The notes under the pieces were generated by a model that saw only the letters and a list, made by a program, of their open reading frames with translations, was not told the origin of the DNA and ran no database searches. Both the position numbers and the translations under genes were made by a program. DNA of 64,000 bases from Escherichia phage vB_Eco_F25. Location of the stretch: the sequence record OP870144.1; one strand, given 5' to 3'. Position 1 is the stretch's first letter, and each line of letters begins with the position of its first letter. Positions 181 to 55,059 of this stretch are shown here, piece by piece.

Positions 181-1746
181 ATGACTATCAAAACTAAAGC
201 TGAACTTTTGAACAAATGGAAGCCATTACTGGAAGGTGAAGGTTTACCGGAAATTGCTAATAGCAAACAAGCGATTATCGCTAAAATCTTTGAAAACCAG
301 GAAAAAGATTTCCAGACAGCTCCGGAATATAAAGACGAAAAAATTGCTCAGGCATTCGGTTCTTTCTTAACAGAAGCTGAAATCGGTGGTGACCACGGTT
401 ACAATGCCACCAACATCGCTGCAGGTCAGACTTCTGGCGCAGTAACTCAGATTGGCCCAGCTGTTATGGGTATGGTACGTCGTGCTATTCCTAACCTGAT
501 TGCTTTCGATATTTGCGGTGTTCAGCCGATGAACAGCCCGACTGGCCAGGTATTCGCGCTGCGCGCAGTATATGGTAAAGATCCAATCGCTTCCGGCGCT
601 AAAGAAGCATTCCACCCAATGTATGGTCCAGATGCAATGTTCTCTGGTCAGGGTGCTGCTAAGAAATTCGCTGCTTTGAAAGCAAGTGATACTCTTGAAG
701 TTGGAACTATTTACACCCACTTCTTCCAGGACACTGGTACTGTGTATCTGCAAGCTACAGAAGCTAAACAAATTGATTCAGGCGCATCTGACGCAGCTAA
801 ATTAGATGCTGAAATTAAGAAACAAATGGAAGCAGGTGTACTGGTAGAAATCGCTGAAGGTATGGCTACTTCTATCGCTGAACTCCAGGAAGGTTTTAAC
901 GGTTCTACCGATAACCCATGGAATGAAATGGGCTTCCGTATCGATAAGCAAGTTATCGAAGCTAAATCTCGTCAGCTGAAAGCTGCTTACTCTATTGAAT
1001 TAGCACAAGACCTCCGCGCTGTTCATGGTATGGATGCTGATGCTGAACTGTCTGGTATTCTGGCTACCGAAATTATGCTGGAAATCAACCGCGAAGTTGT
1101 TGATTGGATTAACTACTCCGCTCAGGTTGGTAAATCTGGTATGACCCTGACTCCGGGTTCTAAAGCTGGTGTATTCGACTTCCAGGACCCAATCGATATT
1201 CGTGGTGCTCGCTGGGCGGGTGAATCCTTTAAAGCTCTGTTGTTCCAGATTGACAAAGAAGCAGTTGAAATTGCTCGTCAAACCGGTCGTGGTGAAGGTA
1301 ACTTCATTATCGCTTCCCGTAACGTAGTTAACGTTCTGGCTTCAGTTGATACCGGCATTTCTTATGCTGCACAAGGTCTGGCTACCGGCTTTAACACTGA
1401 TACTACCAAGTCAGTATTTGCTGGTGTTCTGGGTGGTAAATACCGTGTATATATCGACCAGTATGCTAAACAGGATTATTTCACTGTAGGTTATAAAGGT
1501 CCGAACGAAATGGATGCTGGTATTTACTACGCTCCATATGTAGCTCTGACTCCACTGCGTGGTTCTGATCCGAAGAACTTCCAACCGGTAATGGGGTTCA
1601 AAACTCGTTACGGTATCGGTATCAACCCATTTGCAGAATCCGCTGCTCAGGCTCCGGCTTCTCGCATTCAGAGTGGTATGCCTTCTATCCTGAACAGCCT
1701 TGGTAAGAACGCTTACTTCCGCCGTGTATATGTTAAAGGTATCTAA
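181..1746 (+). CDS. 23: Major capsid protein gp23
   Basis: 521-aa ORF whose sequence (MTIKTKAELLNKWKPLLEGEGLPEIANSKQAII…) I recognise as T4 gp23; length matches; followed by terminator hairpin. Confidence 0.97.
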   Translation: MTIKTKAELLNKWKPLLEGEGLPEIANSKQAIIAKIFENQEKDFQTAPEYKDEKIAQAFGSFLTEAEIGGDHGYNATNIAAGQTSGAVTQIGPAVMGMVRRAIPNLIAFDICGVQPMNSPTGQVFALRAVYGKDPIASGAKEAFHPMYGPDAMFSGQGAAKKFAALKASDTLEVGTIYTHFFQDTGTVYLQATEAKQIDSGASDAAKLDAEIKKQMEAGVLVEIAEGMATSIAELQEGFNGSTDNPWNEMGFRIDKQVIEAKSRQLKAAYSIELAQDLRAVHGMDADAELSGILATEIMLEINREVVDWINYSAQVGKSGMTLTPGSKAGVFDFQDPIDIRGARWAGESFKALLFQIDKEAVEIARQTGRGEGNFIIASRNVVNVLASVDTGISYAAQGLATGFNTDTTKSVFAGVLGGKYRVYIDQYAKQDYFTVGYKGPNEMDAGIYYAPYVALTPLRGSDPKNFQPVMGFKTRYGIGINPFAESAAQAPASRIQSGMPSILNSLGKNAYFRRVYVKGI

Positions 1747-1761
1747 TCTTTGACGATTTAA

Positions 1762-1790
1762 GGGACCTTCGGGTCCCTTTAGTTGTTTTT
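1762..1790 (+). terminator. Rho-independent terminator after gene 23
   Basis: Hairpin GGGACC-TTCG-GGTCCC followed by a T-rich run. Confidence 0.7.
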
Positions 1791-1794
1791 ATGG

Positions 1795-1802
1795 TATAAA
1801 TA
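1795..1802 (+). promoter_or_regulatory. Late promoter (TATAAATA) for gene 24
   Basis: Exact TATAAATA 28 nt upstream of the gene 24 ATG, after the gene 23 terminator hairpin. Confidence 0.65.
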
Positions 1803-1829
1803 AATCATATAAACTGAAAGGAAAGCGCA

Positions 1830-3113
1830 ATGGCTAAAATCAACGAACTTCTGCGCGAATCAACCACAACGAATAGCAACTCAATCGGTCGCCCAAATCT
1901 CGTTGCTTTGACTCGCGCTACCACTAAATTAATATATTCTGACATTGTAGCAACGCAAAGAACTAATCAACCTGTTGCTGCTTTTTATGGTATCAAATAC
2001 CTTAACCCAGACAACGAATTTACATTTAAAACTGGTGCTACTTATGCTGGCGAAGCTGGATATGTAGACCGAGAAAAAATCACAGAATTAACAGAAGAGT
2101 CTAAATTAACTCTCAATAAAGGCGATTTATTCAAATATAATAATATCGTTTATAAAGTATTAGAAGATACACCATTTGCTGATATTGAAGAAAGTGATTT
2201 AGAATTAGCTCTTCAGATTGCAATTGTTCTTTTAAAGGTTCGTCTATTTTCTGACGCAGCGTCAACAAGCAAATTTGAAAGCTCTGATAGTGAAATTGCG
2301 GATGCTAGATTCCAGATTAATAAATGGCAAACCGCAGTTAAATCTCGTAAACTTAAAACTGGTATCACGGTTGAATTAGCACAAGATTTAGAAGCAAATG
2401 GATTCGATGCTCCTAATTTCTTAGAAGATTTGCTTGCAACTGAAATGGCAGATGAAATCAATAAAGATATTCTGCAGTCTTTGATTACAGTATCAAAACG
2501 TTATAAAGTTACAGGAATTACTGATACTGGATTCATTGATTTGAGTTATGCATCTGCACCTGAAGCTGGTCGTTCATTATACCGAATGGTATGTGAAATG
2601 GTTTCGCATATCCAAAAAGAATCAACTTATACAGCAACGTTCTGTGTTGCTTCAGCTCGTGCCGCTGCGATTCTTGCTGCATCTGGTTGGTTAAAACATA
2701 AACCAGAAGATGATAAATATCTTTCACAAAATGCCTACGGGTTCTTAGCTAATGGTTTACCGCTTTATTGCGATACTAATAGCCCATTAGATTATGTAAT
2801 CGTTGGCGTAGTAGAAAATATCGGTGAAAAAGAAATTGTTGGATCAATTTTCTATGCTCCGTATACAGAAGGTCTCGACTTAGATGACCCTGAACATGTA
2901 GGTGCATTTAAAGTTGTGGTTGATCCAGAAAGCTTACAACCGTCTATCGGTTTATTAGTTAGATATGCTTTATCTGCAAATCCTTACACCGTAGCAAAAG
3001 ATGAAAAAGAAGCAAGAGTAATTGATGGTGGAGACATGGATAAAATGGCGGGTCGTTCAGATTTGTCTGTTTTATTAGGTGTTAAGCTACCGAAAATTAT
3101 CATTGATGAATAA
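1830..3113 (+). CDS. 24: Capsid vertex protein gp24
   Basis: 427-aa ORF directly after gene 23 with its own TATAAATA late promoter; gp23 paralogue position; length matches T4 gp24. Confidence 0.93.
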   Translation: MAKINELLRESTTTNSNSIGRPNLVALTRATTKLIYSDIVATQRTNQPVAAFYGIKYLNPDNEFTFKTGATYAGEAGYVDREKITELTEESKLTLNKGDLFKYNNIVYKVLEDTPFADIEESDLELALQIAIVLLKVRLFSDAASTSKFESSDSEIADARFQINKWQTAVKSRKLKTGITVELAQDLEANGFDAPNFLEDLLATEMADEINKDILQSLITVSKRYKVTGITDTGFIDLSYASAPEAGRSLYRMVCEMVSHIQKESTYTATFCVASARAAAILAASGWLKHKPEDDKYLSQNAYGFLANGLPLYCDTNSPLDYVIVGVVENIGEKEIVGSIFYAPYTEGLDLDDPEHVGAFKVVVDPESLQPSIGLLVRYALSANPYTVAKDEKEARVIDGGDMDKMAGRSDLSVLLGVKLPKIIIDE

Positions 3114-6595: not shown

Positions 6596-7213
6596 ATGTA
6601 CCACTTTGTATATGAAACAACAAATCTAATAAATGGTAAAAAGTATATAGGAAAACACTCTACTGATGACTTGAATGATGGTTACCTTGGTTCCGGTAAG
6701 GCAATTCAGCAGGCTATAAAGAAATATGGTGAAAACAATTTCTCTAGAACAATACTAAAAGAGTTTAAAACTTCCGAAGAAGCGTACATGTATGAAGAAG
6801 AAATTATAACTCCTGAAATAATAAAAAGCAAAAATTATTATAATATGAAACCTGGTGGAATTGGTGGAATTGTTATGACTACAGAGGTTATAGCAAAGAT
6901 GAAAGAATCTTCCGCTAAGAGATTTGAAAACTCACCGGGCACGGTATTAGGTACAACTTGTTACACTAATGGAACTAAAAATATTTTTATTAAACCTGGA
7001 GAACTTGTTCCAGAAGGATTTGTAAAAGGGATGGTTCATCCTAATAGAAAGTCCAGAAAAGGATGTAAAGTCAAACCGACTACCACAGGAACTTTTTGGG
7101 TCAATAATGGCGTAATAAATAAATTAATACAACCAGACGGTATTATTCCCGACGGATTTATTAAAGGTCGTCTCATGAAAAGAGATTCTAAAGGCAAATT
7201 TAGTAAGGCATAA
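6596..7213 (+). CDS. segE: GIY-YIG homing endonuclease SegE
   Basis: 205-aa ORF with N-terminal GIY-YIG-type motif (HFVYETTNLINGKKYIGKH); located between inh and uvsW as in T4. Confidence 0.8.
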   Translation: MYHFVYETTNLINGKKYIGKHSTDDLNDGYLGSGKAIQQAIKKYGENNFSRTILKEFKTSEEAYMYEEEIITPEIIKSKNYYNMKPGGIGGIVMTTEVIAKMKESSAKRFENSPGTVLGTTCYTNGTKNIFIKPGELVPEGFVKGMVHPNRKSRKGCKVKPTTTGTFWVNNGVINKLIQPDGIIPDGFIKGRLMKRDSKGKFSKA

Positions 7214-17989: not shown

Positions 17990-20077
17990 TTATCCTTGAA
18001 CGAACTTGTAAGGCATGTTTGCAATATCTATGCAAGACGCAATAATTCCAAGAGATGATTCTACTTTCTGTTTAACATTTGATGAAACAAATGATGCAAA
18101 GTCAACTCTATCTTCTATATCACCTGTCATTGTAACCAATTCACCAGTTTCCATTAAATGGTCTCCGTCATAGATTACCGATTCGGTGAGTTCTTCTGTG
18201 GTCATAACTTCAGCTTGAATGAGTTTTGTATTATTAGATGTTGTTCCGTCATTATTAGAAGCATCAGTTATTTTATTAACTTTGACCATCAATCCGCGCG
18301 GTAGAATAACTTCAGCTTCTGTTGCTATTCCGAGACTTCCTGGATATACAACATTAACTTTATGAGCTCCATCAATTGCCCATCCTATTTGAACTTTAAC
18401 GTATTCAGGATTTTCTTTATACGCTCTTATTTCGCTTGGATTAATAGTTATTCCTTCTTCATTTTTATCAACTGTCAATTCATTACGAGCTTCTGGTTCT
18501 AAAAGACCAATACCAGCATGTGTAATTCCAAAACGTCCAAAAATGATAGGAGTTAAAGAAGTAGATACAAAATTTCTGAAATAGAACACTTTATTTTTAA
18601 CTAGTGCTTCGTATATAGGAGCAGTCATGCTTTGAGCACGATAAACTGTAATGCCTTCTGGTATACGGTCACCATTTTCAAAAGCTGAATCTAAGTTATT
18701 TATAGCAGATTCAATTTCTTTTTCACTCATTACATCATATCGTTCTGGATTGTAACGACCCAAAAGAAGATTATTGATGTCAGTATATCCTGAACCACAA
18801 TACTCTCTAATGCCGCGCTTTTGTGATGGAGTATATTTAGAACCATCACGGGCAATAGTAATATCAATCATTGGACCTGCACCAATTCCAGAAAAACTGT
18901 AAATCATTCGTTTGAGGAATTTAGTTTTTGCTGCGTTCCAGGAATTTTTAGTTATTTCTTCCCAGACTTCATCTGGTTGTCCTTTACGATTTTTATTATG
19001 ATTAGCAAGCCATTTATCTTTATAATCTTCAAAGAATTGATTTACAGCTGCTGCGTATTTCTCTAAACATTTTATTGAAGTAGTTGGTTCATTTTTAATT
19101 GCATTAAAAATTACTTCTTTAATTTTTTCTGAAACTTCATTAACCTCACTTTTTGAAAAGAATTTATAGTCATAGTGAAGTTCATCTGCGGTTCCTTCGG
19201 CAATAATTTTTGCTGCCTTAGTTTTAGAAGCTAATGAATTAATTCCAAGCTTCATTTCTTCTGCTTCGGGAATTAAAGGAGCTGTAGCAGGTTTATTGAA
19301 ATTAGCTGCGGTAGATTCATATTTCTGGAATAATTCGCTTTCAAATCTAGAAGATTCTAATGACTGACTTTGCGCAATTGCTCTACGGGAAATTTTAACT
19401 TTAACGATTACAGCTTGGTCAGAACGTTTATCATTTTCTTGTGCAATAGATGCTGCAATTGCCTCATTTTTAGTTACTTGGGCTCCAGTATCTTTATTGA
19501 TATAAACATCACCGACTTTTGATTCAACTTTAGTAAAGAGCTCGGTACTAATTTCCGGAACTCCTGGAATGTCTTCTAGTGATACATTTTTGCGATGTAT
19601 AAGAATATATGCGTACTTTTTATCATAATCCCAGAGTTCCTTAAGAAGGACGTATCTACCACCTGAACGACTACGGATAAGTCTATCAGCAATAACTTGA
19701 ATTTGTCGAGCTTGGCCAGCAGTTTTAGACTTAAGAATACGAAGCATACAAGCATCAATTTTATATTGACGCATTGTTTGCATTGCAACAGTAAAAACTG
19801 AATTGATATAATTAATTGGGCTTGGACCAAGACCTTTTAATTTAGCAATTGAACCTTTAGCAGTTAATGTAAAAGGAACAATATGCATCATTTTATCGCC
19901 CATCTTTAAATCGCGATTAGTATCACCTCCAGATGTATAGGTACATAAACGAAAGCCTGGTTGTTCAATTGCATCATCAACATGAACTGAAAAAATTTGT
20001 GGTATTTTCTTCTTTGGATTTAAGTTTGTAATCGGAAGAGTAGTATCTTCGTCAAATAATTCTGTAATGAGTTCCAT
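17990..20077 (-). CDS. alt: Alt ADP-ribosyltransferase (virion-packaged, modifies host RNA polymerase)
   Basis: 695-aa ORF from second ATG (GAGG RBS 5 nt upstream); sequence MELITELFDEDTTLPITNLNPKKKIPQIFSVHVDD… recognised; late promoter TATAAATA on - strand at 20101-20108. Confidence 0.92.
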   Translation of the reverse strand: MELITELFDEDTTLPITNLNPKKKIPQIFSVHVDDAIEQPGFRLCTYTSGGDTNRDLKMGDKMMHIVPFTLTAKGSIAKLKGLGPSPINYINSVFTVAMQTMRQYKIDACMLRILKSKTAGQARQIQVIADRLIRSRSGGRYVLLKELWDYDKKYAYILIHRKNVSLEDIPGVPEISTELFTKVESKVGDVYINKDTGAQVTKNEAIAASIAQENDKRSDQAVIVKVKISRRAIAQSQSLESSRFESELFQKYESTAANFNKPATAPLIPEAEEMKLGINSLASKTKAAKIIAEGTADELHYDYKFFSKSEVNEVSEKIKEVIFNAIKNEPTTSIKCLEKYAAAVNQFFEDYKDKWLANHNKNRKGQPDEVWEEITKNSWNAAKTKFLKRMIYSFSGIGAGPMIDITIARDGSKYTPSQKRGIREYCGSGYTDINNLLLGRYNPERYDVMSEKEIESAINNLDSAFENGDRIPEGITVYRAQSMTAPIYEALVKNKVFYFRNFVSTSLTPIIFGRFGITHAGIGLLEPEARNELTVDKNEEGITINPSEIRAYKENPEYVKVQIGWAIDGAHKVNVVYPGSLGIATEAEVILPRGLMVKVNKITDASNNDGTTSNNTKLIQAEVMTTEELTESVIYDGDHLMETGELVTMTGDIEDRVDFASFVSSNVKQKVESSLGIIASCIDIANMPYKFVQG

Positions 20078-25158: not shown

Positions 25159-25515
25159 TGCCTGCGCAAGCCCTCAAGGGGAACATAGGTTTTTGAATAT
25201 TTAACGACCAGGATAACCATAAACCTCGTCATCATACCTTATAGCTCTTATCTGTTGCACACCGTTAGCTTAAAGGTTCCGGGTTCGATTTCTCGAGGAT
25301 AAGATATATACTGATGGATATATAGGCCTTGAGGCGTACTCCCGATTGGCCATCACCTCGGGGTAGCATGCACTTGCCGCTATAAGAATAACATTCAAGA
25401 GGTACACCGTAAAACTGCCGGGGTCTTAAAACTATAATGATTCGCAAATCATTAATCAGACAGTTCGACGGCTCCTCGATTTTAGCTCACACTAAGGCAG
25501 TGAATCTCCAATAAA

Positions 25516-28708: not shown

Positions 28709-29933
<1,225 letters not shown>

Positions 29934-29936: not shown

Positions 29937-30167
29937 TTATTTCTCAACCAATGATTGAATATAATCATGCAGGTCTTTAGATGCTTTACCCCACTTATTT
30001 TGGTATTCATTTTTAAGATTAGCCCGAGATTGAGCTAATAAAACATCATTAGTTGGAGGTAAAGATTCTAACCGTTGAATCTGGCGTCCATAAATCATTG
30101 CAGCCATCTCGGATTCATAAATCAATCCTTTGAGATGTTCAAATTGATGCCATGAAATCATTTGCAT
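29937..30167 (-). CDS. Hypothetical protein (76 aa)
   Basis: ORF in co-oriented block. Confidence 0.5.
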   Translation of the reverse strand: MQMISWHQFEHLKGLIYESEMAAMIYGRQIQRLESLPPTNDVLLAQSRANLKNEYQNKWGKASKDLHDYIQSLVEK

Positions 30168-30457
30168 TTATCCTCTTTTAGCTCTTGACGATAATAACAT
30201 ATCATAGTTTTTTGGTCATGTACATATCGTTTTACATCATTAAGCCAAATACGAAATTCCTGGGAATCTTCAAATGGCATACCGACCCAAGCTTTACCAT
30301 CAATAACTTTAACTTGCCAAGATAGTTTAGCTTCATCATATGACTTTATTTGTACAGGCCAATTAGGATGAACTGTTTCTTTCTTTACTTCTAGAGGCTT
30401 TGTCGAACAACCAACTAGAAGACCAATAGATAATATTACTGCTGATAGTTTAATCAT
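30158..30457 (-). CDS. pseT.2: Outer-membrane spanin-like lipoprotein (Rz1 equivalent; likely T4 pseT.2)
   Basis: 99-aa ORF with lipoprotein signal peptide and lipobox (MIKLSAVILSIGLLVGCS); immediately follows the TM/coiled-coil partner with 4-nt overlap. Confidence 0.65.
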   Translation of the reverse strand: MIKLSAVILSIGLLVGCSTKPLEVKKETVHPNWPVQIKSYDEAKLSWQVKVIDGKAWVGMPFEDSQEFRIWLNDVKRYVHDQKTMICYYRQELKEDKCK

Positions 30458-30807
30458 TTAGAAAGGTCCTGGATGTCTTCTGCGAACTTGTTGAAGGAGT
30501 TGTTGATTTGTTTTTCAACCAATCCTGGCTTATGGGCCACCACATCCGCCTTCTTTGCGTCTTTGCGCAGTTTTTCATTTTCACGCTCAATAGCAGCAAT
30601 TGCCTCACGATTTTTATTATTCATCGCATCAATATAATTATACTGAATTCGCAAATTGTTTAATGCTAAGGCGTTTTCATTGGCCGTTTTTGTAATTTCT
30701 ACAACAGACGTTTCTAATCTTTCAATTTTATTTTTTAAAATTAAAGAAGTTCCGCCTAATGCAATTACAATTAATAGCAAACCTGCTGTCGTATTACTTA
30801 ATTGCAT
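30454..30807 (-). CDS. pseT.3: Inner-membrane spanin-like protein (Rz equivalent; likely T4 pseT.3)
   Basis: 117-aa ORF: N-terminal TM helix (GLLLIVIALGGTSLIL) followed by a predicted coiled coil. Confidence 0.65.
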   Translation of the reverse strand: MQLSNTTAGLLLIVIALGGTSLILKNKIERLETSVVEITKTANENALALNNLRIQYNYIDAMNNKNREAIAAIERENEKLRKDAKKADVVAHKPGLVEKQINNSFNKFAEDIQDLSK

Positions 30808-31304
30808 AAAGTTTTAATAACCTCTATAATATCGTCTTGAGAAAGACCGTTAATTAAAATATGATGTTCCGCCGGAGATTTAGAAATTTTAAAGCATGCC
30901 GCAACATCTTCTGCCATATCCGATGCACTACGATTTGGATTACTAATTCCAAGACGATGCTTTCCAGTCAAAGGATTAACGATGATATAGCATTTACAAC
31001 TATTGATATGAACATTAGGTTGAGTCTGATTAATGAACACTTCACAATCATACTTAGCGAGTTGATTTTCTAAAAAGACTTTCATCTCCTCAACCGCATC
31101 AGGAAGCATATCACGGGCTTGCTCAAGACGACGATTTCGATATTCTTTAGTGGTCGTTTTCCGCTTGACTTGCTTCGCTAAATCTTTCTTAAGATCGGTG
31201 ATATATCCAACTCGACGATTTCCTTTGAATACAGAAATCCCATCTGTAGTATCACCGTATGCTTCAACGACCATTTCAGTAGTAATAAGCTGCAAATCCA
31301 TCAT
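30798..31304 (-). CDS. alc: Alc, inhibitor of host transcription on cytosine-containing DNA
   Basis: 168-aa ORF (T4 Alc about 167 aa) between pseT.3 and rnlA; early promoter at 31333-31362 upstream. Confidence 0.85.
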   Translation of the reverse strand: MMDLQLITTEMVVEAYGDTTDGISVFKGNRRVGYITDLKKDLAKQVKRKTTTKEYRNRRLEQARDMLPDAVEEMKVFLENQLAKYDCEVFINQTQPNVHINSCKCYIIVNPLTGKHRLGISNPNRSASDMAEDVAACFKISKSPAEHHILINGLSQDDIIEVIKTLCN

Positions 31305-31310
31305 AAAGTC

Positions 31311-31362
31311 CTCATGTTATGTCAGTAAGACTACTATAACACAACATGAGGGACTTGTAAAC
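31311..31362. repeat. Copy 2 of the early promoter / 5'-leader cassette (partner at 17581-17632)
   Basis: CTCATGTTATGTcAGTAAGACTACTATAACACAACAtGAGGGACTTGTAAAC. Confidence 0.7.
31333..31362 (-). promoter_or_regulatory. Early promoter upstream of alc
   Basis: Minus strand GTTTACAagtccctcatgttgtgtTATAGT about 30 nt upstream of the alc ATG. Confidence 0.6.
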
Positions 31363-31365
31363 AGC

Positions 31366-32953
<1,588 letters not shown>

Positions 32954-32980
32954 AATAAAATGGGCCTTGCGGCCCACTCC

Positions 32981-34159
32981 TTAAAAGTATTTTTTAAAAC
33001 TCATCATAACTTTATCATCAACATCATTATCAATCTGTGCAACAAGATAAGATGACAGTTCTACTTCTTGCGGCGCTGATTGAACATTATCAGAATTAAG
33101 GTATTCACGAATCCAAGGATATGGATGTTTAACCGGAGCATCGGTAATCGGGCATGGAAGACCGCACTGTTTCATACGAGATACAGTTAAGTAATCAATA
33201 AAGCTCCACATGCTATTTGTATTTAATCCAGGAACATCGCCATCTTTAAATAAATGAACTGCCCAATCTTTTTCTTGGCGGTTAACTTCCATGAAAATAT
33301 CAACTGCTTCTTGTTCACACTCTTTGGCAATTTTAACCCATTCATCACCATCAGTGCCAAGTTGAAGTTGACGAATAATATATTGTGTACCTTTAAGATG
33401 AAGCTGCTCATCACGTGCAATAAATTTCATAATCTTCGCATTACCTTCCATGATTTCCATGTTCTTATGGAAGTTGAAAGTACATGCAAAGGATACATAA
33501 AAACGAATAGCTTCCAGAGCATTGATAACATGAAGACACAGATAGAGAGACTTCATTAGGTCATGTTTACATTCTTCCATGTGCATAAGACTATTTGAAT
33601 ATGCATCTAAATCATATTCATTTTCGGAAAAACGTTTAAAAATTTCTTTGGCATTTTCCCATTCACGAGTCTTGACTAGAACATCGTCATAATAGCGGCC
33701 AATAGACTCAGCACGTTTCATAATAGCTTCATCTAATACAATTTCATCAAATACCTTCGATGGATCAGTATAAAGATTTCGCATGATATGAGTATACGAA
33801 CGAGAGTGAATAGTTTCACTGAATGTCCATGTAGCAACCCATGTATCAAGACTTGGGTCTGAAATTAACGACATAAGTACAGCAGATGGTGCACGACCCT
33901 GAATGCTATCTAGAAGTGATTGATACTTCAGGTTATTAGTAAAAATATCTTGCTGATATTGAGGAAGCTTGTTAAATTGCGCAGCATCCATCATTAAGTT
34001 TACTTCTTCAGGACGCCAGAAAAATGACAACTGCTTTTCGGTTAAATCTTCAAAAACTTTATGACGTTGAATATCATAACGCGCAATACCAAGACCTGAA
34101 CCAAAAAACATAGGTTCTTTTAAAACATCAACTGGATTTGTATTAAAAACTGTGCTCAT
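32981..34159 (-). CDS. nrdB: Ribonucleotide reductase small subunit NrdB (uninterrupted, no intron)
   Basis: 392-aa continuous ORF with RNR beta di-iron ligand motifs (e.g. EAIRFYVSF, DEQLHL). Confidence 0.93.
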   Translation of the reverse strand: MSTVFNTNPVDVLKEPMFFGSGLGIARYDIQRHKVFEDLTEKQLSFFWRPEEVNLMMDAAQFNKLPQYQQDIFTNNLKYQSLLDSIQGRAPSAVLMSLISDPSLDTWVATWTFSETIHSRSYTHIMRNLYTDPSKVFDEIVLDEAIMKRAESIGRYYDDVLVKTREWENAKEIFKRFSENEYDLDAYSNSLMHMEECKHDLMKSLYLCLHVINALEAIRFYVSFACTFNFHKNMEIMEGNAKIMKFIARDEQLHLKGTQYIIRQLQLGTDGDEWVKIAKECEQEAVDIFMEVNRQEKDWAVHLFKDGDVPGLNTNSMWSFIDYLTVSRMKQCGLPCPITDAPVKHPYPWIREYLNSDNVQSAPQEVELSSYLVAQIDNDVDDKVMMSFKKYF

Positions 34160-34210
34160 AAATTTTCCACTTAGTTAATAGATAGTGACTCGTCCATGAG
34201 TCAAATTATA

Positions 34211-36475
34211 TCATAATTTACAGGATGAACAATCTTCAGCTTTTGGAGTTTCTATTTCATAATCATCAGTACCAGAACCATCACGGGTATTATGATAATA
34301 GAAATTTTTTCCGCCAAAATACCAAAAATACAAAAGGTCATCAATCATTATTGACATTGGAACCTTTCCTTTTGGAAAAATCTGTGGGTCATAATATGTA
34401 TTCGCCGAAGCTGATTGACAAACCCATTTCAGCATAATAGCTACCTGCGTAAGATAAGGTTTATTACCTTTCTTAGCTAATTTCCATGTATAATCATAGA
34501 GGTCTATGTTATGCTCAATATTGGGCACGACTTGATTAAAGGAGCCCTCTTTTGATTCTTTAACAGAGACTGGTCCACGTGGAGGCTCGATACCGTTTGT
34601 ACTGTTAGAAACTTGGGAAGATGACTCACATGGCATAAGTGCTGATAATGTGCTATTACGGATGCCAAAGAGCTTAAGGTCTTCCCGCAGCGACGACCAG
34701 TCACAAACGTATTTTGGAGCTGCGATTTGGTCAATCTTTTTATTGTACCAGTCGATAGGTAATTCGCCTCGAGACCAACGAGTGTCTGAATAATATTCAC
34801 AAGGTCCTTTTTCTTTGGCGAGTTTAATGGATGCTTTAATGAGTCCATACTGTAATCTCTCAAATAATTCATGTGTTAAATCGTTAGCATCTTCATAAGA
34901 AGCAAAGTTACTTGCCAGCCAAGCTGCATAGTTAGTAACACCTACACCGAGGTTACGACGCTTTTTAGCTTTTTCTGCTTCAGGAACTGGATATCCTTGG
35001 TAATCCAAAAGATTATCGAGAGCACGAACTTGGACTTCTGCCAATTCATTAATTTTATCTTGGTCTTGCCAGTCAAAATTATCCAGTACGAATGCAGAGA
35101 GAGTACACAATCCAATTTCAGCATCTGGACTATTCACATCATTTGTTGGAATAGCAATTTCACAACACAAGTTACTCTGACGAATAGGTGCCTTTTCACG
35201 AATAAACGGAGTATAGTTATTCGTATTATCAATGAACTGCACATAAATCCTTGCTGTTCCTGAGCGTTCAGTCATGAGCAATTCAAATAGTTCACGGGCT
35301 TTAATACGCTTTTTACGAATATTAGGGTCTTTTTCTGCTGCTTCGTATAATTCACGGAAACGGTCTTGGTCTTTAAAATAAGAATAATAAAGCTCGCCAC
35401 CCATTTCATGCGGACTGAACAAAGTAATGTAATCGTTCTTTCCGAATCGTTCCATCATCAAATCATTCAGTTGAACACCATAATCCATATGACGAATGCG
35501 GTTTTCTTCTACGCCTTTGTTATTTTTCAAAACAAGAAGATTTTCAACTTCCAAATGCCAAATAGGATAATAAGCAGTAGCAGCGCCGCCACGAATTCCA
35601 CCCTGTGAGCATGATTTAACAGCAGTCTGAAAATGTTTCCAAAAAGGAATAACACCGGTATGGCGTACTTCACCCATGCCAATCTTAGAACCTTCGGCAC
35701 GAATCATACCAACATTAATACCAATTCCAGCGCGTTTGGAGATATATTCAACAATTGAAGCGGAAGCCTTATTGATAGACTTTAATGAATCACCTGCCTC
35801 AATAACAACGCATGAACTAAACTGTCGAGTCGGAGTACGACAGCCAGCCATAATAGGAGTTGGCAATGAAATCTGTCGAGTAGATACTGCTTCATAAAAA
35901 CGAATAACATGTTTTAATCTATCAACAGGTTCATCTTGATGCAATGCCATTCCAATAGTCATAAATGCAAACTGTGGAGTTTCATAAATTTGACCAGTGG
36001 TTTTATCTTTAACTAGATATTTTTCTTTTAATTGCATCGCCCCGGAATAAGTAAATTCCATATCCCGCTCGTGCTTAATTTTTGATTCTAAAAATGTAAT
36101 TTCTTCTGCTGAATATTTTGACAATAATTCAGGGTCATATTTACCTTCATTTACACAGTAAGAAATATGGTCAATAAATGAACGTGGTTCATATTGTCCG
36201 TAAACATGCTTACGAAGAGCAAACATTAAACAGCGCGCAGCTACATATTGATAATCAGGCTCTTCAACCGAAATAGAATTCGCAGCAGCCTTAATTACAA
36301 TGGTTTGAATGTCATCAGTGGTCATTCCATCACGGAGATATGATTTAATATTTTCATATAATTCATAAGGATCTACAGATGTTCCTTCAGCTGCCCAAGA
36401 TAAAACTTTAATAATTTTTTGTGGATCAAAGCTCTGAGAAACACCACTACTTTTGATAACATTAATTAATTGCAT
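34211..36475 (-). CDS. nrdA: Ribonucleotide reductase large subunit NrdA
   Basis: 754-aa ORF (T4 NrdA length) with class Ia RNR active-site region (NLCCEIAIP). Confidence 0.95.
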   Translation of the reverse strand: MQLINVIKSSGVSQSFDPQKIIKVLSWAAEGTSVDPYELYENIKSYLRDGMTTDDIQTIVIKAAANSISVEEPDYQYVAARCLMFALRKHVYGQYEPRSFIDHISYCVNEGKYDPELLSKYSAEEITFLESKIKHERDMEFTYSGAMQLKEKYLVKDKTTGQIYETPQFAFMTIGMALHQDEPVDRLKHVIRFYEAVSTRQISLPTPIMAGCRTPTRQFSSCVVIEAGDSLKSINKASASIVEYISKRAGIGINVGMIRAEGSKIGMGEVRHTGVIPFWKHFQTAVKSCSQGGIRGGAATAYYPIWHLEVENLLVLKNNKGVEENRIRHMDYGVQLNDLMMERFGKNDYITLFSPHEMGGELYYSYFKDQDRFRELYEAAEKDPNIRKKRIKARELFELLMTERSGTARIYVQFIDNTNNYTPFIREKAPIRQSNLCCEIAIPTNDVNSPDAEIGLCTLSAFVLDNFDWQDQDKINELAEVQVRALDNLLDYQGYPVPEAEKAKKRRNLGVGVTNYAAWLASNFASYEDANDLTHELFERLQYGLIKASIKLAKEKGPCEYYSDTRWSRGELPIDWYNKKIDQIAAPKYVCDWSSLREDLKLFGIRNSTLSALMPCESSSQVSNSTNGIEPPRGPVSVKESKEGSFNQVVPNIEHNIDLYDYTWKLAKKGNKPYLTQVAIMLKWVCQSASANTYYDPQIFPKGKVPMSIMIDDLLYFWYFGGKNFYYHNTRDGSGTDDYEIETPKAEDCSSCKL

Positions 36476-36792
36476 AAGTCCTCAACTTGAAAATCGTCTT
36501 TAAACAATCGGTTAACTATATGAGCTATTATATCACCATGACACGGCTTTGGTTTACATGTGCATCCTAGCCTCATTCCACGTAAAGGCTCTAAATGTGC
36601 TTTAGTTATTTCTCCGGATTTAATTCGACGTATAAAATCTTTTTTGAATAATTCAATGGCAGCCTCCCGGCTGCCAGCATCTTTACCGACGTAATTTCCC
36701 CAAAATGTACCACGGTGAATATTAACATCAAAGTCGGATTTATATTTATTCACTACTTGGCATAGACGGCCCGCGCGGTGATAATTCGTCAT
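36466..36792 (-). CDS. Hypothetical Cys/His-motif protein (T4 nrdA.1 position)
   Basis: 108-aa ORF; C-terminal [11 protein letters not shown] motif suggests metal binding. Confidence 0.6.
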
Positions 36793-37021
36793 ATTGTTTT
36801 TCCGTTAAAACAGTAATATCATAATAACAATCTGAAGAAGTTTTAACTGTAGAAATTTTATTATCAAAATACTCACGAGTCATTTTATGAGTATAATATT
36901 TTTTGCCATAAATGATAATAGGCTGATTTGGTCCTGGAACTTCTAACTCGCTTGGGTTAGGAAGTGTAAAAAGAACTACACCAGAAGTATCTTTAAATCG
37001 TAAAATCATATATCCTCTCAA
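36746..37021 (-). CDS. Hypothetical protein (T4 nrdA.2 position)
   Basis: 91-aa ORF. Confidence 0.5.
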
Positions 37022-37032: not shown

Positions 37033-37344
37033 TTATACCGCCATCTTTCCTTTAATTGACGGATGAGATACATAGTTGTTAAGAACAAAATTATGAGGCT
37101 TTGCAAATTGACTCAACCAAAATACCTGCGATTCTGTGTCCCATTCATCAAATTCATCTGGAAATTTTAATTGTAATTCGCATAAATCCATAGGTTCACG
37201 GCGTAAAATTTCTTTACATTGTTCTACGTGATTCATATAGATATGAGTATTACCACCAGAAAATATCAAATCTCCAGGAATAAGATTACACATTTTAGCT
37301 ACAATATGAACTAACGTAGCATATGATGCAATATTAAATGGAAG
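37033..37344 (-). CDS. td: Thymidylate synthase, exon 2
   Basis: Exon boundary placed from the recalled T4 td intron 3' end (…CATAATG|CTACCG); translation LPFNIASYATLVHIVAKMCNL… continues the TS fold; exons 1+2 give 286 aa. Confidence 0.9.
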   Translation of the reverse strand, partial: LPFNIASYATLVHIVAKMCNLIPGDLIFSGGNTHIYMNHVEQCKEILRREPMDLCELQLKFPDEFDEWDTESQVFWLSQFAKPHNFVLNNYVSHPSIKGKMAV

Positions 37345-38360
37345 CATTATGTTCAGATAAGGTCGTTAATCTTACCCCGGAATTATATCCAGCTGCATGT
37401 CACCATGCAGATCAGACTATATCTCCAACTTGTTAAAGCAAGTTGTCTATCGTTTCGAGTCACTTGACCCTACTCCCCAAAGGGATAGTCGTTAGGCATT
37501 TATGTAGAACCAATTCCATTTATCAGATTTTACACGATAAGTAACTAATCCAGACGAAATTTTAAAATGTCTAGCTGCATCTGCTGCACAATCAAAAATA
37601 ACCCCATCACATGAAATCTTTTTAATATTACTAGGCTTTTTACCTTTCATCTTTTCTGATATTTTAGATTTAGTTATGTCTGAATGCTTATGATTAAAGA
37701 ATGAATTATTTTCACCTGAACGATTTCTGCATTTACTACAAGTATAAGCAGAAGTTTGTATGCGAACACCGCACTTACAAAACTTATGGGTTTCTGGATT
37801 CCAACGCCCGTTTTTACTTCCGGGTTTACTGTAAAGAGCTTTCCGACCATCAGGTCCAAGTTTAAGCATCTTAGCTTTAACAGTTTCAGAACGTTTCTTA
37901 ATAATTTCTTCTTTTAATGGATGCGTAGAACATGTATCACCAAACGTTGCATCAGCAATATTGTATCCATTAATTTTAGAATTAAGCTCTTTAATCCAAA
38001 AATTTTCTCGTTCAATAATCAAATCTTTCTCATATGGAATTTCTTCCAAAATAGAACATTCAAACACATTACCATGTTTGTTAAAAGACCTCTGAAGCTT
38101 TATAGAAGAATGGCATCCTTTTTCTAAATCTTTAAAATGCCTCTTCCATCTCTTTTCAAAATCTTTAGCACTTCCTACATATACTTTATTGTTTAAAGTA
38201 TTTTTAATCTGATAAATTCCGCTTTTCATAAATACCTCTTTAAATATAGAAGTATTTATTAAAGGGCAGTCCTACAATTTAGCACGGGATTGTCTACTAG
38301 AGAGGTTCCCCGTTTAGATAGATTACAAGTATAAGTCACCTTATACTCAGGCCTCAATTA
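37345..38360 (-). mobile_element. Group I self-splicing intron in td (1016 nt) carrying the I-TevI ORF
   Basis: 5' end TAATTGAGGCCTGAGTATAAGGTGACTTATACTTGTAATCTATCTAAACGGGGAACC… recognised as the T4 td intron; length 1016 nt matches; splits an otherwise continuous TS reading frame. Confidence 0.9.
37492..38229 (-). CDS. I-TevI: Intron-encoded GIY-YIG homing endonuclease I-TevI
   Basis: 245-aa ORF (I-TevI length); N-terminal GIY-YIG motif (MKSGIYQIKNTLNNKVYVGSAKDFEKRWKRH); zinc-finger/linker CKCGVRIQTSAYTCSKC. Confidence 0.93.
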   Translation of the reverse strand: MKSGIYQIKNTLNNKVYVGSAKDFEKRWKRHFKDLEKGCHSSIKLQRSFNKHGNVFECSILEEIPYEKDLIIERENFWIKELNSKINGYNIADATFGDTCSTHPLKEEIIKKRSETVKAKMLKLGPDGRKALYSKPGSKNGRWNPETHKFCKCGVRIQTSAYTCSKCRNRSGENNSFFNHKHSDITKSKISEKMKGKKPSNIKKISCDGVIFDCAADAARHFKISSGLVTYRVKSDKWNWFYINA

Positions 38361-38909
38361 ACCCAAGAAAACATCTACTGATCGTTGATACCACTGCAAA
38401 TCCAAATAACCATTACGCACATTAAACTGATAGAACATGTGACAAGGCGGTAATGCCATTTGCTTGAGTTCAGCTGGATTCCATGCTGAAACAACTTGAC
38501 GTCTATCATTTGGCAGTTTTTTAATACGATCAATAACTTCTACAATTTGGTCTACACCGCCAAAATCACGCCATTGTTTTCCATAAATTGGACCAAGTTC
38601 ACCACTATGATATCCTAAATCTTTTGCCTGATTTTCGTAATTTTCATCCCAGACTGTTTTGCCTTGAATTAATGAATCATGCTGAATTAATCGTAAATCA
38701 TTTACATTAGTACTTCCTGATAAAAACCATATTAGCTCAGCAATACAAGCTTTCCAAGCGAGCTTCTTAGTTGTTACTGCAGGAAAACCTTTAGTTAAAT
38801 CCCAGCGCAATTTAGTACCGAACAAAGCAATTGTTCCTGTGCCTGTTCGGTCATCAGTTTCATAGCCATTTTCAAAAATGTCTTTAATTAAATCTTGGTA
38901 TTGTTTCAT
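38361..38909 (-). CDS. td: Thymidylate synthase, exon 1
   Basis: 183 codons ending …RSVDVFLG at the intron 5' splice site; TS active-site Cys region (ALPPCHMFYQF). Confidence 0.92.
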
Positions 38910-38953: not shown

Positions 38954-39313
38954 TCAATACGGTTTAGCATCAAATTTTCTTTCAATTTCAGGCGTGAAAT
39001 ATAATTCTTTACCGCGTTTGGAAAAGCGACCAATAATATGATAATTATTCTCATCAAACGTAATATTGCCAATATCCATAGCTTTCAACCAAATATCGAT
39101 ATTTCTGTCAAGCTTTATATCAAAATTCCAATACGGAGAACTATTACCGAAAATACTGCAAGCGGATTCAGTGAAACAACTGCTATAAATCTTGTCTTTA
39201 GGAACTACTAATTGATAGACGCCTTTAATAAACTGAGGACCCTGCCATTTAGGTTGTTTCGCGTCTTTTTCTAATAGAATAGGGTAATAATTAAAGCTCA
39301 TATTTTCCGCCAC
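38954..39313 (-). CDS. Hypothetical protein (119 aa) inserted between frd and td
   Basis: Uninterrupted ORF filling a roughly 410-bp gap between frd stop and td start; co-oriented; no recognisable motif. Confidence 0.55.
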   Translation of the reverse strand: MAENMSFNYYPILLEKDAKQPKWQGPQFIKGVYQLVVPKDKIYSSCFTESACSIFGNSSPYWNFDIKLDRNIDIWLKAMDIGNITFDENNYHIIGRFSKRGKELYFTPEIERKFDAKPY

Positions 39314-39321: not shown

Positions 39322-40148
<827 letters not shown>

Positions 40149-41343: not shown

Positions 41344-42249
41344 TTAAAGGTCATTCAAAAGGTCATCCAGGTCCGTGTCATCAGCACTAGATGAACTGCC
41401 AGAGCTTGAGCTCATAAAATCATCTTCAGTTTTTGTTTTGAAGTCATCAACATTGAATGCATCCAAATCATCAGCAACTTTATCAGCTTTCTTAGCGGCA
41501 GTTGCTGCGGCACCACCCATAGCAGCAGTTCCCATAACTTGACTGAACTTAGTGCTCAGTTCTTCAAACGATTTGAATTTATCTTTAGAAGTCATTTCAG
41601 AAAGGTCAACCATTTGTTCGAACAGTTCTTTCTGGAAAGATTCATCATCAATGTTTGGAATCGCAGATTGATTCAGGAATTTAGATTCATCGTAGTTACT
41701 AAAACCAGAAACTTGTTTAACTTTCAGTACAAAGTTAGCACCTTCCCACGGACAAGTTACATCAACCGGAGTTTCACCCATTTCAACATCAACCGCAATC
41801 ATCGCGTTGATTTTATCCCAGATTTTCTTACCGAAACGATATTTAAATACTTTACCTTCATTTTCTGGAGCAGCTGGGTCTTTTACAACAAGAATATTAG
41901 CCCAGTAAGAAGTTTTACGTTTAACAAGACTGTACTCTTTATTGTCAGTGTTGTACAGATCATTTTTACTGATGTACTGACATACTGGACAAGAATCGTA
42001 ATCACCATGGGTAGATGAACATGTTTCAATATACCATTTACCATTTTTCTTGAAACCGTGATTTACAAGAATTGCGAATGGTGCTTGTTCATCATTTTTA
42101 GACGGAAGAAAACGAATTACTGCTTGACCGTTACCCGCATTATCGAGTTTCAGTTTCCACTCGCCTTTATCTTCAGAAGAAAAACCTTTATTGCCATTCA
42201 GTTTAGCCATTTGTGCAGCAAGTTCAGCAGTAGATTTACGTTTAAACAT
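41344..42249 (-). CDS. 32: Single-stranded DNA-binding protein gp32
   Basis: 301-aa ORF; sequence [51 protein letters not shown]… recognised; acidic Ser/Asp-rich C-terminus; known autoregulatory leader upstream. Confidence 0.97.
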
Positions 42250-42312
42250 TTTATTTCCTTTTTAATTTAATTTAATTAACAGTTGGTGCTATGACACTTT
42301 ACCTCATAGCTG
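42250..42312 (-). promoter_or_regulatory. Gene 32 mRNA translational operator (autoregulatory leader)
   Basis: Minus strand reads GCTATGAGGTAAAGTGTCATAGCACCAACTGTTAATTAAATTAAATTAAAAAGGAAATAAAATG: pseudoknot-forming segment followed by UUAAA repeats, as described for T4 gene 32. Confidence 0.7.
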
Positions 42313-42936
42313 GCATAATTCGCAATACTCTGGGTCTTCGAGAGGTATCCAACCTGAGTTGAAATACTTTACCATCGATTTAGCAGTTGTATCAGTTATA
42401 TTTATATTACCTTTAACTCTTCGCCATCCGGGAGTTTTACCGTACAGATTAGAGGATAATAATAACACATAATTCTCGTAAGCAATATGAGATAATTTCC
42501 AAGACTCTATATTAGCTCGTGATGTTTTCCAAGGTCTAAAATCGTCACGGTTCATATAATTAGCCAATCTCATATGCTCTCTAACTTCCGGGTCTTTTGC
42601 TGGATGAGTTTCACCACTCACACCAAATCCACCACCAGCATATACCAGATTAAAATAGTCTGGATTATCTCTGGCATTTACTTCAAGTTGGTATTTTCGT
42701 TCTGCTTCAATAACATCCAAGTCATCATCAATTTGAATTATTTTAACGCTCGGTTTTTGAAGCATTAGCGCATTCAAAAATCTTTTTTGTTTACATGAGC
42801 TCCAGTATTCCTTTCCGGAAGAGTCATATATTATTCCGTTCTCAAATGAGCAATTTAATTTACTACCGATATAGTAGTATGGCGGAGTCTTATTTTTGAC
42901 ACGGTCTTCAAATGTAAACCAATATACTATATTCAT
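42304..42936 (-). CDS. segG: GIY-YIG-like homing endonuclease (SegG-like; T4 32.1 position)
   Basis: 210-aa ORF between genes 59 and 32; N-terminal IVYWF…YYYIGSK resembles a GIY-(10 to 11)-YIG motif. Confidence 0.6.
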   Translation of the reverse strand: MNIVYWFTFEDRVKNKTPPYYYIGSKLNCSFENGIIYDSSGKEYWSSCKQKRFLNALMLQKPSVKIIQIDDDLDVIEAERKYQLEVNARDNPDYFNLVYAGGGFGVSGETHPAKDPEVREHMRLANYMNRDDFRPWKTSRANIESWKLSHIAYENYVLLLSSNLYGKTPGWRRVKGNINITDTTAKSMVKYFNSGWIPLEDPEYCELCQL

Positions 42937-53900: not shown

Positions 53901-54254
53901 CGCGATGTTTATGTCCGCTCTGATATTCGTGTTAAAAAGGACCTAGTTAAATTTGAAAATGCTTCACAAACACTTTCAAAAATTAACGGTTACACTTATA
54001 TGCAGAAGCGAGGCCTAGATGAAGAAGGCAATCAGAAATGGGAACCTAACGCCGGTTTGATAGCTCAAGAAGTTCAAGCTATTTTGCCTGAATTAGTTGA
54101 AGGTGACCCTGATGGCGAAGCTTTACTTCGTTTAAACTATAACGGTGTAATTGGTTTAAATACAGCTGCAATCAATGAGCATACTGCAGAAATTGCGGAA
54201 CTTAAATCAGAAATTGAAGAACTTAAAGCATTAGTTAAATCATTGTTAAAATAA
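50925..54254 (+). CDS. 37: Long tail fibre distal subunit gp37 with C-terminal chaperone-like domain
   Basis: 1109-aa ORF after gene 36; C-terminal segment (…[38 protein letters not shown]… followed by coiled coil) resembles intramolecular-chaperone domains of phage fibres. Confidence 0.92.
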
Positions 54255-54285
54255 TAAGAGGGGCTTCGGCCCCTTGGAGGTTTAT

Positions 54286-55059
54286 ATGGCAGTAGCAGGA
54301 CCGTGGGTAGGATCGTCTGCAGTAGTTAATACAGGACAAAATTGGATGGGTGGTGCCGCGCAGAGATTGAGAATGGGAATTCCGTTTTGGATGAGTAATA
54401 TGATAGGTCGATCTGTTGAAGTAATTCACACACTTGGAGCGGACCATAACTTCAATGGTCAATGGTTCCGAGATAGATGTTTTGAGGCAGGTAGTACACC
54501 TATAGTGTTTAATATCACTGGAGATTTAGTATCATATTCTAGAGACGTTCCTTTATTCTTCATGTACGGAGATACACCGAATGAATATGTTCAACTGAAT
54601 ATACATGGTGTAACGATGTATGGACGTGGCGGTAATGGCGGTAGCAATAGTCCTGGCTCAGCTGGAGGTCATTGTATTCAAAACGATATTGGTGGGAGAC
54701 TAAGAATCAATAATGGCGGAGCTATTGCAGGCGGTGGCGGCGGCGGTGGCGGCGGTAACTACGGTAGACTATCATTTGGTGGTGGTGGTGGTCGCCCATT
54801 CGGTGCTGGCGGGTCTTCCTCTCATATGAGTTCTGGTGCAACTGCTGGCTCCATTTCCGCTCCGGGTGCAGGATCTGCTGGTGAGGGGTCTCTTTGGGTA
54901 TATACAGGCGGGAATGGCGGTGAAGTTGGCTCAGCAGGAGGTAGATGTAATATTCATGGGAACGGTACAGAATATAACGGTGGTGCTGCTGGTTATGCCG
55001 TCATAGGGTCTACACCGACATGGCAAAACGTTGGAGCAATATATGGTCCAAGAGTATAA
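54286..55059 (+). CDS. 38: Receptor-recognising adhesin gp38 (T2-type, glycine-rich motifs)
   Basis: 257-aa protein from ATG 54286 (GGAGG RBS; the track ORF begins at a TTG codon); several poly-Gly motifs ([17 protein letters not shown]) separated by variable segments. Confidence 0.85.
54722..54790 (+). repeat. GGY codon tract encoding the poly-glycine motif of gp38
   Basis: ggcggtggcggcggcggtggcggcggtaac… simple-sequence tract within gene 38. Confidence 0.6.

Follow-up and report, generated by a model that had tools for sequence, protein, structure and literature searches.

Which T4 homing elements are present

Differences among T-even phages in the homing endonucleases and introns that they carry have been described since the 1980s. 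The DNA studied here, a stretch of 64,000 nt (referred to as the window), is a segment of a Tequatrovirus (T4-like) genome spanning gene 23 to rIIB. The question raised by its ribonucleotide reductase and thymidylate synthase loci was which of six T4 elements the phage carries, and whether their combination reveals its affiliation. The initial annotation had taken the pattern, together with the type of the gp38 adhesin, to indicate a T2-like relative rather than T4 itself.

In alignment with T4, the window was collinear at ~95% identity and all genes were intact; gene 23, for instance, corresponds to T4 positions 104945-106510. Three of the six elements were present: the td group I intron with I-TevI, segE and segG. 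The sites of the other three, namely segD, mobE with nrdB.1, and the nrdB intron with I-TevIII, were unoccupied (Table 1). Within the six loci these three elements accounted for the only large gaps relative to T4, and this alignment showed no trace of segD, mobE or the intron at the empty sites. The T4 RefSeq annotation confirmed the initial statement that T4 has segD, mobE and the nrdB intron at these places. No tRNA was found in the window by ARAGORN.

Backbone identity, calculated over 512 shared 100-nt chunks, was 95.7% to T4 and 95.8% to T2. Of these chunks, 191 were nearer to T4 and 188 nearer to T2. Identity with phage T4 was ruled out by the backbone value, by the absence of segD, mobE/nrdB.1 and the nrdB intron, and by gp37 and gp38, which are unrelated in type.

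Four ORFs of the window are extra relative to T4 (29613-29933, 38954-39313, 39903-40148 and 61904-62209). They were considered as unrecognised homing endonucleases and rejected, since no Pfam nuclease domain was found in them. PHROG places all four in families without a known function, and counterparts of the first three are annotated in T2 and/or T6.

Table 1. Positions of the genes, elements and sites discussed in the text
Feature	Position	Strand	Description
gene 23 (major capsid protein)	181..1746	plus	521 aa; 96.4% aa identity to T4 gp23
gene 23-24 spacer, unoccupied segD site (assumed homing site, see text)	1747..1829	plus	83 bp
gene 24 (capsid vertex protein)	1830..3113	plus	427 aa; 99.1% aa identity to T4 gp24
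segE, free-standing GIY-YIG homing endonuclease, between inh and uvsW	6596..7213	plus	
nrdB	32981..34159	minus	1179 nt, 392 aa, uninterrupted single ORF; Pfam Ribonuc_red_sm
empty nrdB intron insertion site	33483..33484	minus	...TTTGCAT^GTACTTTC...
hypervariable NrdB cassette	33560..33646	minus	about aa 172-200
nrdB nt 114-131, T2-type sequence around MobE nick site	34029..34046	minus	
nrdA-nrdB spacer, unoccupied mobE/nrdB.1 site	34160..34210	minus	51 bp; hairpin 34203-34186
nrdA	34211..36475	minus	754 aa, uninterrupted; 98.5% aa identity to T4 NrdA, full length
td exon 2	37033..37344	minus	312 nt; splice-junction reconstruction
td group I intron	37345..38360	minus	1016 nt
I-TevI ORF	37492..38229	minus	245 aa, intact
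td exon 1	38361..38909	minus	549 nt; 5' splice site ...CTTGGGT|TAATTGAGG, same as T4
segG, free-standing GIY-YIG homing endonuclease, between genes 32 and 59	42304..42936	minus	
gp38, T2-family tail-fibre adhesin	54286..55059	plus	Pfam GP38 E 1.5e-69 + Gp38_N

The td intron and its flanks

The initial description of td as a gene split by a group I intron of 1016 nt with an intact I-TevI ORF proved right in coordinates and in size. When the intron was removed, an open thymidylate synthase frame of 286 aa resulted, and the junctions matched those of T4. The junctions were placed by BLAST and reading-frame reconstruction; a three-way MAFFT alignment of intron-bearing and intronless td genes put the intron in the wrong position. 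At the gathering threshold Rfam gave no match in the entire window. In a local E-value scan the group I model RF00028 matched the td intron at 37393-37623 (42.5 bits, E 5.7e-9; the gathering score is 50), and the catalytic core is probably split by the 738-nt ORF. The T4 td intron has been shown experimentally to be self-splicing. In annotation, td has to be entered as a single gene with splicing rather than in two pieces.

The I-TevI protein is the same as that of T4 in all 245 of its amino acids and contains the GIY-YIG (2e-18), I-TevI_ZnF (1e-20) and I-TevI_DNA-bd (3e-32) domains of Pfam. The intron differs from the T4 copy by two substitutions and one single-base indel (99.7% identity) and from the T6 copy by one substitution; at least 12 other phages have a copy with 100% identity to it. 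Relative to T4 there were only 3 differences in the 1016 nt of the intron. This is fewer than the 34 in the 549 nt of the first td exon (Fisher p 4e-13), and intron divergence was also lower than the ~4.3% of the backbone (p 1e-15).

Exon 2 contains a variant cassette of T6/ECML-134 type (37087-37204), and over the exon there were 13 differences from T6 versus 72 from T4; chunk 37101-37200 had no match in T4 or T2. Exon 1, at about 94-95% identity, showed no marked affinity to T4 or T6. Only on the exon 2 side was a clean tract of co-conversion seen.

segE and segG

The genes initially described as segE and segG-like were borne out as such, with 98.0% and 100% amino acid identity to their T4 counterparts (7 of 618 and 2 of 633 nucleotides differing, respectively). 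SegE matched the Pfam family SegE_GIY-YIG (E 3e-9). SegG had no Pfam match and was assigned by phrog_7504, a homing endonuclease family (E 1e-133). segE is absent from T2, and segG is absent from T2, T6 and ECML-134.

The published targets of SegE and SegG are uvsW and gene 32 (PMC2988022). In the window both neighbouring target genes carry donor-type (co-converted) sequence. The 5' end of uvsW (7301-7400), which adjoins segE, is 98% identical to T4 versus 81% to T2, and the 5' end of gene 32 (42001-42300), which adjoins segG, is 99-100% identical to T4 versus 89-95% to T2. T4-like ends of this kind are what homing accompanied by co-conversion would leave.

The empty sites

The distance of 83 bp given initially for the gap between genes 23 and 24 was correct. 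In T4 this gap holds segD, a gene of 672 nt on the opposite strand (T4 annotation and alignment). The spacer of the window agrees with that of T2 in 81 of 83 nucleotides and contains a terminator-like hairpin (1760-1779) and the late-promoter-like motif TATAAATA. That it represents an unoccupied homing site is an assumption, because mobility of SegD has never been demonstrated (PMC2988022).

The nrdB gene is, as had been noted, one continuous ORF of 392 codons. It encodes a member of the small-chain ribonucleotide reductase family (Pfam) and aligns end to end with the intronless nrdB of T2 and with the spliced nrdB of T4. According to the T4 RefSeq annotation the T4 intron, 598 nt long and containing a defective I-TevIII, lies between homologous T and G residues, and the alignment of the window with T4 breaks at this site. 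The reported gap of 51 bp between nrdA and nrdB was also found; T4 has 700 bp in its place, with nrdB.1 and mobE. This spacer is identical to T2 in 51 of 51 nucleotides, and the identity with T2 (100%) extends over nt 1-272 of nrdB, including the MobE nick site, which has been mapped to nrdB nt 122-126 (PMC2790892). T4 nrdB differs from the window at many positions in nt 101-140.

MobE-sensitive alleles have been distinguished by the polymorphic nt 114-131, which adjoin the conserved codons for FFWRPEE (PMC2790892). The window has no mobE, no nrdB intron and the T2 sequence at nt 114-131, and so has the features of a sensitive recipient allele of T2 type. Since its nrdB contains exactly the sequence that MobE nicks in T2, the phage is predicted to act, in crosses (mixed infection) with T4, as recipient of mobE and, in trans, of the nrdB intron.

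A hypervariable cassette in NrdB

nrdB also contains a hypervariable cassette (Table 1), of which at least six discrete types were distinguished in 120 near-identical NrdB proteins. Its nucleotide identity to T2, T4, T6 and ECML-134 is 46-56%, versus 93-100% elsewhere in nrdB; divergence is highest at the cassette and decays over about 150 nt on each side. In E. coli R2 it corresponds by alignment to residues about 170-190. T4 and T6, both of which have an HNH gene beside nrdB, share one cassette type.

It could be imagined, although we consider it rather improbable, that the cassettes at NrdB aa 172-200 and in exon 2 of thymidylate synthase, which interrupt enzymes otherwise near-identical among phages, are balanced polymorphisms, kept and shuffled by endonuclease-driven gene conversion or escape, or by selection from a host factor able to recognise the surfaces concerned. 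Both cassettes occupy phage-specific segments of the protein surface and are near enough to homing-endonuclease sites for co-conversion. If this were true, a single process would underlie the mosaic of endonucleases as well as that of cassettes. Ordinary recombination, together with simple drift in a surface loop that tolerates change, explains the NrdB cassette data equally well.

Origin of the pattern

The elements carried are near-identical to T4 or T6 copies despite ~4% divergence of the backbone, occupied sites and their flanks are of T4 or T6 type, and empty sites are of T2 type. With high confidence we regard the window as a normal Tequatrovirus segment whose element set differs from those of T4, T2 and T6 through independent gain of each element. 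Homing would have brought the elements in and co-converted the sequence beside them. Their independent assortment is also apparent from the differing subsets in T2, T6 and ECML-134, and from an intronless td in contigs whose NrdB is identical to that of the window (see below). By analogy with published work on the T4 elements, the td intron would splice itself out to give the 286-aa thymidylate synthase. I-TevI, SegE and SegG would cut td, uvsW and gene 32 in co-infecting relatives whose alleles lack the elements, after which the element genes would be copied in through double-strand-break repair. We infer splicing, cleavage and homing in this phage from the identity of its elements to the characterised ones. 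In crosses with T2-like phages it is predicted to serve as donor of the td intron, segE and segG.

Database counts show that the elements missing from the window are the rarer ones. Whole or near-whole copies numbered 196 for the td intron, 166 for segE and 141 for segG in about 500-550 Tequatrovirus-level records, versus 53 for segD (55 with any match) and 21 for full-length mobE; the frequencies are rough, since some of the records counted are GenBank/RefSeq duplicates and many are laboratory stocks of T4. The 118 copies of the nrdB intron include those in phages of other genera. Elements were counted one at a time, and the combined pattern was inspected in five genomes.

Alternatively, the empty sites could be secondary, an ancestor having possessed segD, mobE and the nrdB intron and having lost them by recombination with T2-like alleles or by precise deletion. 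A cycle of gain, degeneration and loss has been proposed for homing endonucleases and is discussed in PMC2988022, and I-TevIII of T4 is already defective. Moreover, a block at ~33901-34300, comprising the 5' end of nrdB, the spacer and the 3' end of nrdA, is 99-100% identical to T2 while the rest is ~96% identical, which suggests recent exchange there. Homing is, however, strongly biased to gain, the element-free condition is the majority state according to the segD and mobE counts above, and the sites are free of remnants. 'Never invaded' and 'replaced' fit the data alike; as a general account of the empty sites, secondary loss appears unlikely.

The alternation of near-identical T4-like and T2-like blocks, and the fact that no database record exceeds ~97% identity to the window, might also suggest a chimeric contig in which two T4-like phages, present in one infection or sequenced together, were assembled as one. 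Such an artefact is very improbable: the six-locus pattern recurs in Shigella phage ESh32, which was sequenced independently, all genes are intact and collinear, and block-wise mosaicism is normal in Tequatrovirus genomes.

That the phage might be T2 itself or closely derived from it, the view towards which the initial annotation leaned, is extremely improbable. The segD and mobE sites are empty and, like nt 1-272 of nrdB, identical or nearly identical to those of T2, NrdB has 392 aa in both, and some ORFs absent from T4 (e.g. one between frd and td) occur in T2, but comparison with the T2 genome refuted the assignment: T2 has an intronless td and neither segE nor segG, its NrdB cassette is different, and at 95.8% the backbone is no closer to it than to T4. 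The gp38 argument held in part. The protein does belong to the T2-type adhesin family and does not genuinely resemble T4 gp38, yet its identity to T2 gp38 is only 45%, and that of gp37 to its T2 counterpart only about 32%. Thus 'not T4' and the T2 type of the empty sites stood, whereas 'T2-like relative' went too far, the backbone being equidistant from T4 and T2 and three elements that T2 lacks being present.

The element pattern is diagnostic of neither the T4 nor the T2 lineage, and the practical point is that the phage is neither. The homing-endonuclease mosaic is correct as described. It is also ordinary and of a known kind, because such variation is well documented and at least one phage already published has this combination. 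A detailed review covers how T-even phages vary in the homing endonucleases and introns that they carry, T4 being the outlier (PMC2988022). Beyond correct annotation, the finding has little significance.

Comparison with known phages

The td intron of T4 shares with that of the window the insertion site, the sequences of the 5' and 3' splice sites, 1013 of 1016 positions and the 245-aa endonuclease. The intron in the T4 RefSeq record is one base longer, and the copy closest to that of the window is in T6. Unlike in T4, exon 2 is of T6/ECML-134 type, including a variant thymidylate synthase segment of ~35 aa, and its first bases (CTTCCA) are T2-like. SegE and SegG of T4 occupy the same positions (inh/uvsW and 32/59) beside the same T4-like target flanks, with no differences of note.

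T2 has none of the six elements. Its nrdA-nrdB region, the MobE-sensitive recipient of Wilson & Edgell 2009 (PMC2790892), likewise lacks mobE, nrdB.1 and the nrdB intron. Further downstream T2 nrdB differs, the window having its own cassette at aa 172-200 with 46% nucleotide identity to T2.

T6 has a td intron one nucleotide different from that of the window, the same td exon 2 cassette and an uninterrupted nrdB. It differs in lacking segG, in having a gene for a 213-aa HNH/NUMOD3 endonuclease between nrdA and nrdB, where the window has none, and in its NrdB, which is of 388 aa and contains the T4-type cassette. In ECML-134 the td intron and segE are present and segG is absent. Two contigs with a 100% identical NrdB and 98.5% nucleotide identity over window positions 30000-37011 represent a different phage, with an intronless td.

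The same pattern at all six loci (td intron with I-TevI, segE and segG present; segD, mobE and the nrdB intron absent) was found in Shigella phage ESh32 (ON528742). Its gene 23-24 and nrdA-nrdB spacers are also 83 bp and 51 bp long, and with just 95.8% nucleotide identity over shared chunks it is a different phage.

Homing-endonuclease elements and empty sites

In the stretch corresponding to the window T4 has six homing-endonuclease elements and no others. Besides segE, segG and the td intron, the T4 RefSeq record shows segD between genes 23 and 24, nrdB.1 with mobE in the nrdA-nrdB interval, and an nrdB gene with a 598-nt intron, whose I-TevIII is defective. This confirmed the T4 layout given in the initial annotation and, because T4 has only these six elements there, its inventory was complete. 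Its coordinates and sizes (ORFs, spacers and the td reconstruction) were all correct, and the gene described as segG-like proved to be segG itself. In the alignment of the window to T4, breaks were found exactly at segD, nrdB.1/mobE and the nrdB intron.

Coordinates of the features in the window
Feature	Position	Strand	Size	Remark
gene 23-24 spacer	gene 23 end 1746, gene 24 start 1830		83 bp	
hoc	5000-5700			parts match T4 poorly; ~5400 poor against T2 as well
segE	6596-7213			98% protein identity to T4 gene
alt	18300-19300			parts match T4 poorly; the one alt gene encodes 696 aa
small insertions relative to T4	29613-29933, 39903-40148 and 61904-62209 (all three minus strand); 25235-25391			
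nrdB	32981-34159	minus	392 codons	one ORF
NrdB cassette	33560-33646	minus	~29 aa	aa ~172-200
nrdA	34211-36475			51-bp spacer to nrdB
td exon 2	37344-37033		312 nt	
td exon 2 variant segment	37087-37204	minus	~35 aa	part of thymidylate synthase
td intron	38360-37345		1016 nt	
I-TevI ORF	38229-37492		245 aa	inside td intron
td exon 1	38909-38361		549 nt	
ORF between frd and td	38954-39313	minus		PHROG 1928 (unknown function)
segG	42304-42936			100% protein identity to T4 gene
gp37 and gp38	50925-55059		gp37 1109 aa	remote from T4 and T2 alike

An open 286-aa thymidylate synthase frame was obtained only when 1016 nt were removed at the T4 splice junctions. The protein encoded in the intron did not differ from T4 I-TevI in any amino acid, and its GIY-YIG, zinc-finger and DNA-binding domains were all present. 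At the Rfam gathering threshold the td group I intron gave no hits; in a local scan the match was confined to the 3' half of the core (37393-37623) and scored 42.5 bits, below the cutoff of 50. The catalytic core is probably interrupted by the ORF. The element is identified as the td intron by where it is inserted, by the open frame that its removal restores and by its 99.7% identity to the T4 copy. Automated RNA annotation would make td look like a pair of gene fragments, which is how it stands in several deposited genomes.

The empty sites, as judged by sequence, are of the T2 type: the nrdA-nrdB spacer was identical to that of T2 in 51 of 51 nt and the 23-24 spacer in 81 of 83, and nt 1-272 of nrdB were 100% identical. 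All six elements are missing from T2 (AP018813; no segE or segG, td intronless), which has spacers of likewise 83 and 51 bp and an uninterrupted 392-codon nrdB. The data fit sites that were never invaded as well as sites that were invaded earlier and then replaced by an empty allele; the block comprising the 5' part of nrdB, the spacer and the 3' part of nrdA, 99-100% identical to T2, is compatible with a recent exchange.

T6 has the td intron with I-TevI and an uninterrupted nrdB but no segG, and carries a gene for a 213-aa HNH/NUMOD3 endonuclease between nrdA and nrdB (5145-5786 of the T6 sequence used for comparison). T4 has mobE (141 aa, HNH) and nrdB.1 (83 aa, NUMOD3) instead (11717-12417 of the T4 sequence used). 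The T6 protein is matched by MobE in its N-terminal part (65% identity over residues 1-117) and by nrdB.1 in its C-terminal part (98.8% identity over residues 131-213), so the T4 pair resembles a longer endonuclease in split or mosaic form.

Relationship to T4 and T2

From gene 23 to rIIB the window was collinear with T4 (~95% nucleotide identity). Among 50,697 phage records searched the top matches were Tequatrovirus isolates (96-97%), and no identical record was found. Over 512 shared 100-nt chunks backbone identity was 95.7% to T4 and 95.8% to T2, with 191 chunks closer to T4 and 188 closer to T2. These values mark a distinct T4-like phage, to which T2 is no nearer than T4. The initial annotation was thus right that this is not T4 itself, but "T2-like relative" is a poor description: the backbone is equidistant, and T2 lacks the half of the listed elements that had been recorded as present. 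The gp38 adhesin, also taken as a pointer to T2, does belong to the T2-type family but is only 45% identical to T2 gp38. The N-terminal part of gp37 was ~32-34% identical to T4 and to T2 each, and the divergence of both proteins would imply a distinct receptor specificity. T2 and Shigella phage ESh32 have two alt-like genes in tandem; the window has one.

The endonuclease gene pattern is not a lineage marker. Two contigs (NCBI GCA_021683455.1 and Logan SRR17762126) encode an NrdB 100% identical to that of the window and are 98.5% identical over 30000-37011, yet td is intronless in both, so element content does not follow the backbone but assorts independently. Both contigs are T4-like phage within assemblies labelled E. 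coli, and the Logan contig has a small GIY-YIG-like ORF at the denA position.

Conservation of the carried elements

In the td intron 3 of 1016 positions differed from T4 and one from T6, as opposed to 34 of 549 for td exon 1 against T4 (Fisher p 4e-13); a 100% identical intron was found in at least 12 other phages. Differences from T4 were 2/633 nt in segG and 7/618 nt in segE, against ~4.3% in the backbone. By this comparison the carried elements are far more conserved than the surrounding sequence. Splicing, cleavage and homing would be expected from their identity to the characterised T4 elements. Identity to T4 and T2 was 98% and 81%, respectively, for the 5' end of uvsW, adjoining segE, and 99-100% and 89-95% for that of gene 32, adjoining segG. 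The published targets of SegE and SegG are uvsW and gene 32 (PMC2988022); T4-like ends in these genes are what homing would be expected to leave if flanking markers were co-converted, the most likely origin of the pattern.

The MobE nick in T2 nrdB was mapped at nt 122-126, in a polymorphic stretch (nt 114-131) adjoining the FFWRPEE codons (PMC2790892). Since the window has exactly the T2 sequence at nt 114-131, its phage is predicted to be a recipient of mobE and, in trans, of the nrdB intron in mixed infection with T4.

Variant segments and additional ORFs

The 120 closest proteins contained at least six discrete types of the NrdB cassette that do not resemble one another; outside the cassette NrdB was nearly invariant (98-100% conserved). 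The cassette aligns to E. coli R2 residues ~170-190 and includes a 12-residue insertion. One type is common to T4 and T6 (388-aa NrdB); those of the window, T2 and ECML-134 differ from it and from one another. Nucleotide divergence in nrdB peaked at the cassette and decayed over ~150 nt on either side. The td exon 2 segment had no nucleotide match to T4 or T2 and was 98% identical to T6 and ECML-134; in the two contigs, the closest nrdA/nrdB relatives, it is of the T4/T2 type, with intronless td.

The ORF between frd and td, without a Pfam domain, is missing in T4, whose frd and td genes overlap, and has counterparts in T2, T6, ECML-134 and ESh32. Three of the small insertions contain ORFs of 106, 81 and 101 aa (PHROG families of unknown function); no nuclease domain was found in the ORFs of the insertions.

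Distribution of the elements

Whole or nearly whole copies were counted element by element in ~500-550 Tequatrovirus-level records; the counts are rough, since they take in GenBank/RefSeq duplicates and numerous stocks of T4. The td intron was found in 196 records, segE in 166, segG in 141, the nrdB intron in 118 (phages of other genera included), segD in 53 (55 with any match) and full-length T4-type mobE in 21 (140 with partial matches). The window thus has the commoner elements and is without the rarer ones. In ECML-134 the td intron and segE are present and segG is absent.

The endonuclease mosaic is a correct observation and already known, a verdict left unchanged by the NrdB cassette, the td exon 2 segment and the correspondence of mobE and nrdB.1 to the T6 protein. 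Chimeric assembly is unlikely, and unnecessary as an explanation, because ESh32 (ON528742), 95.8% identical to the window overall, shows the identical six-locus pattern, likewise with 83-bp and 51-bp spacers.
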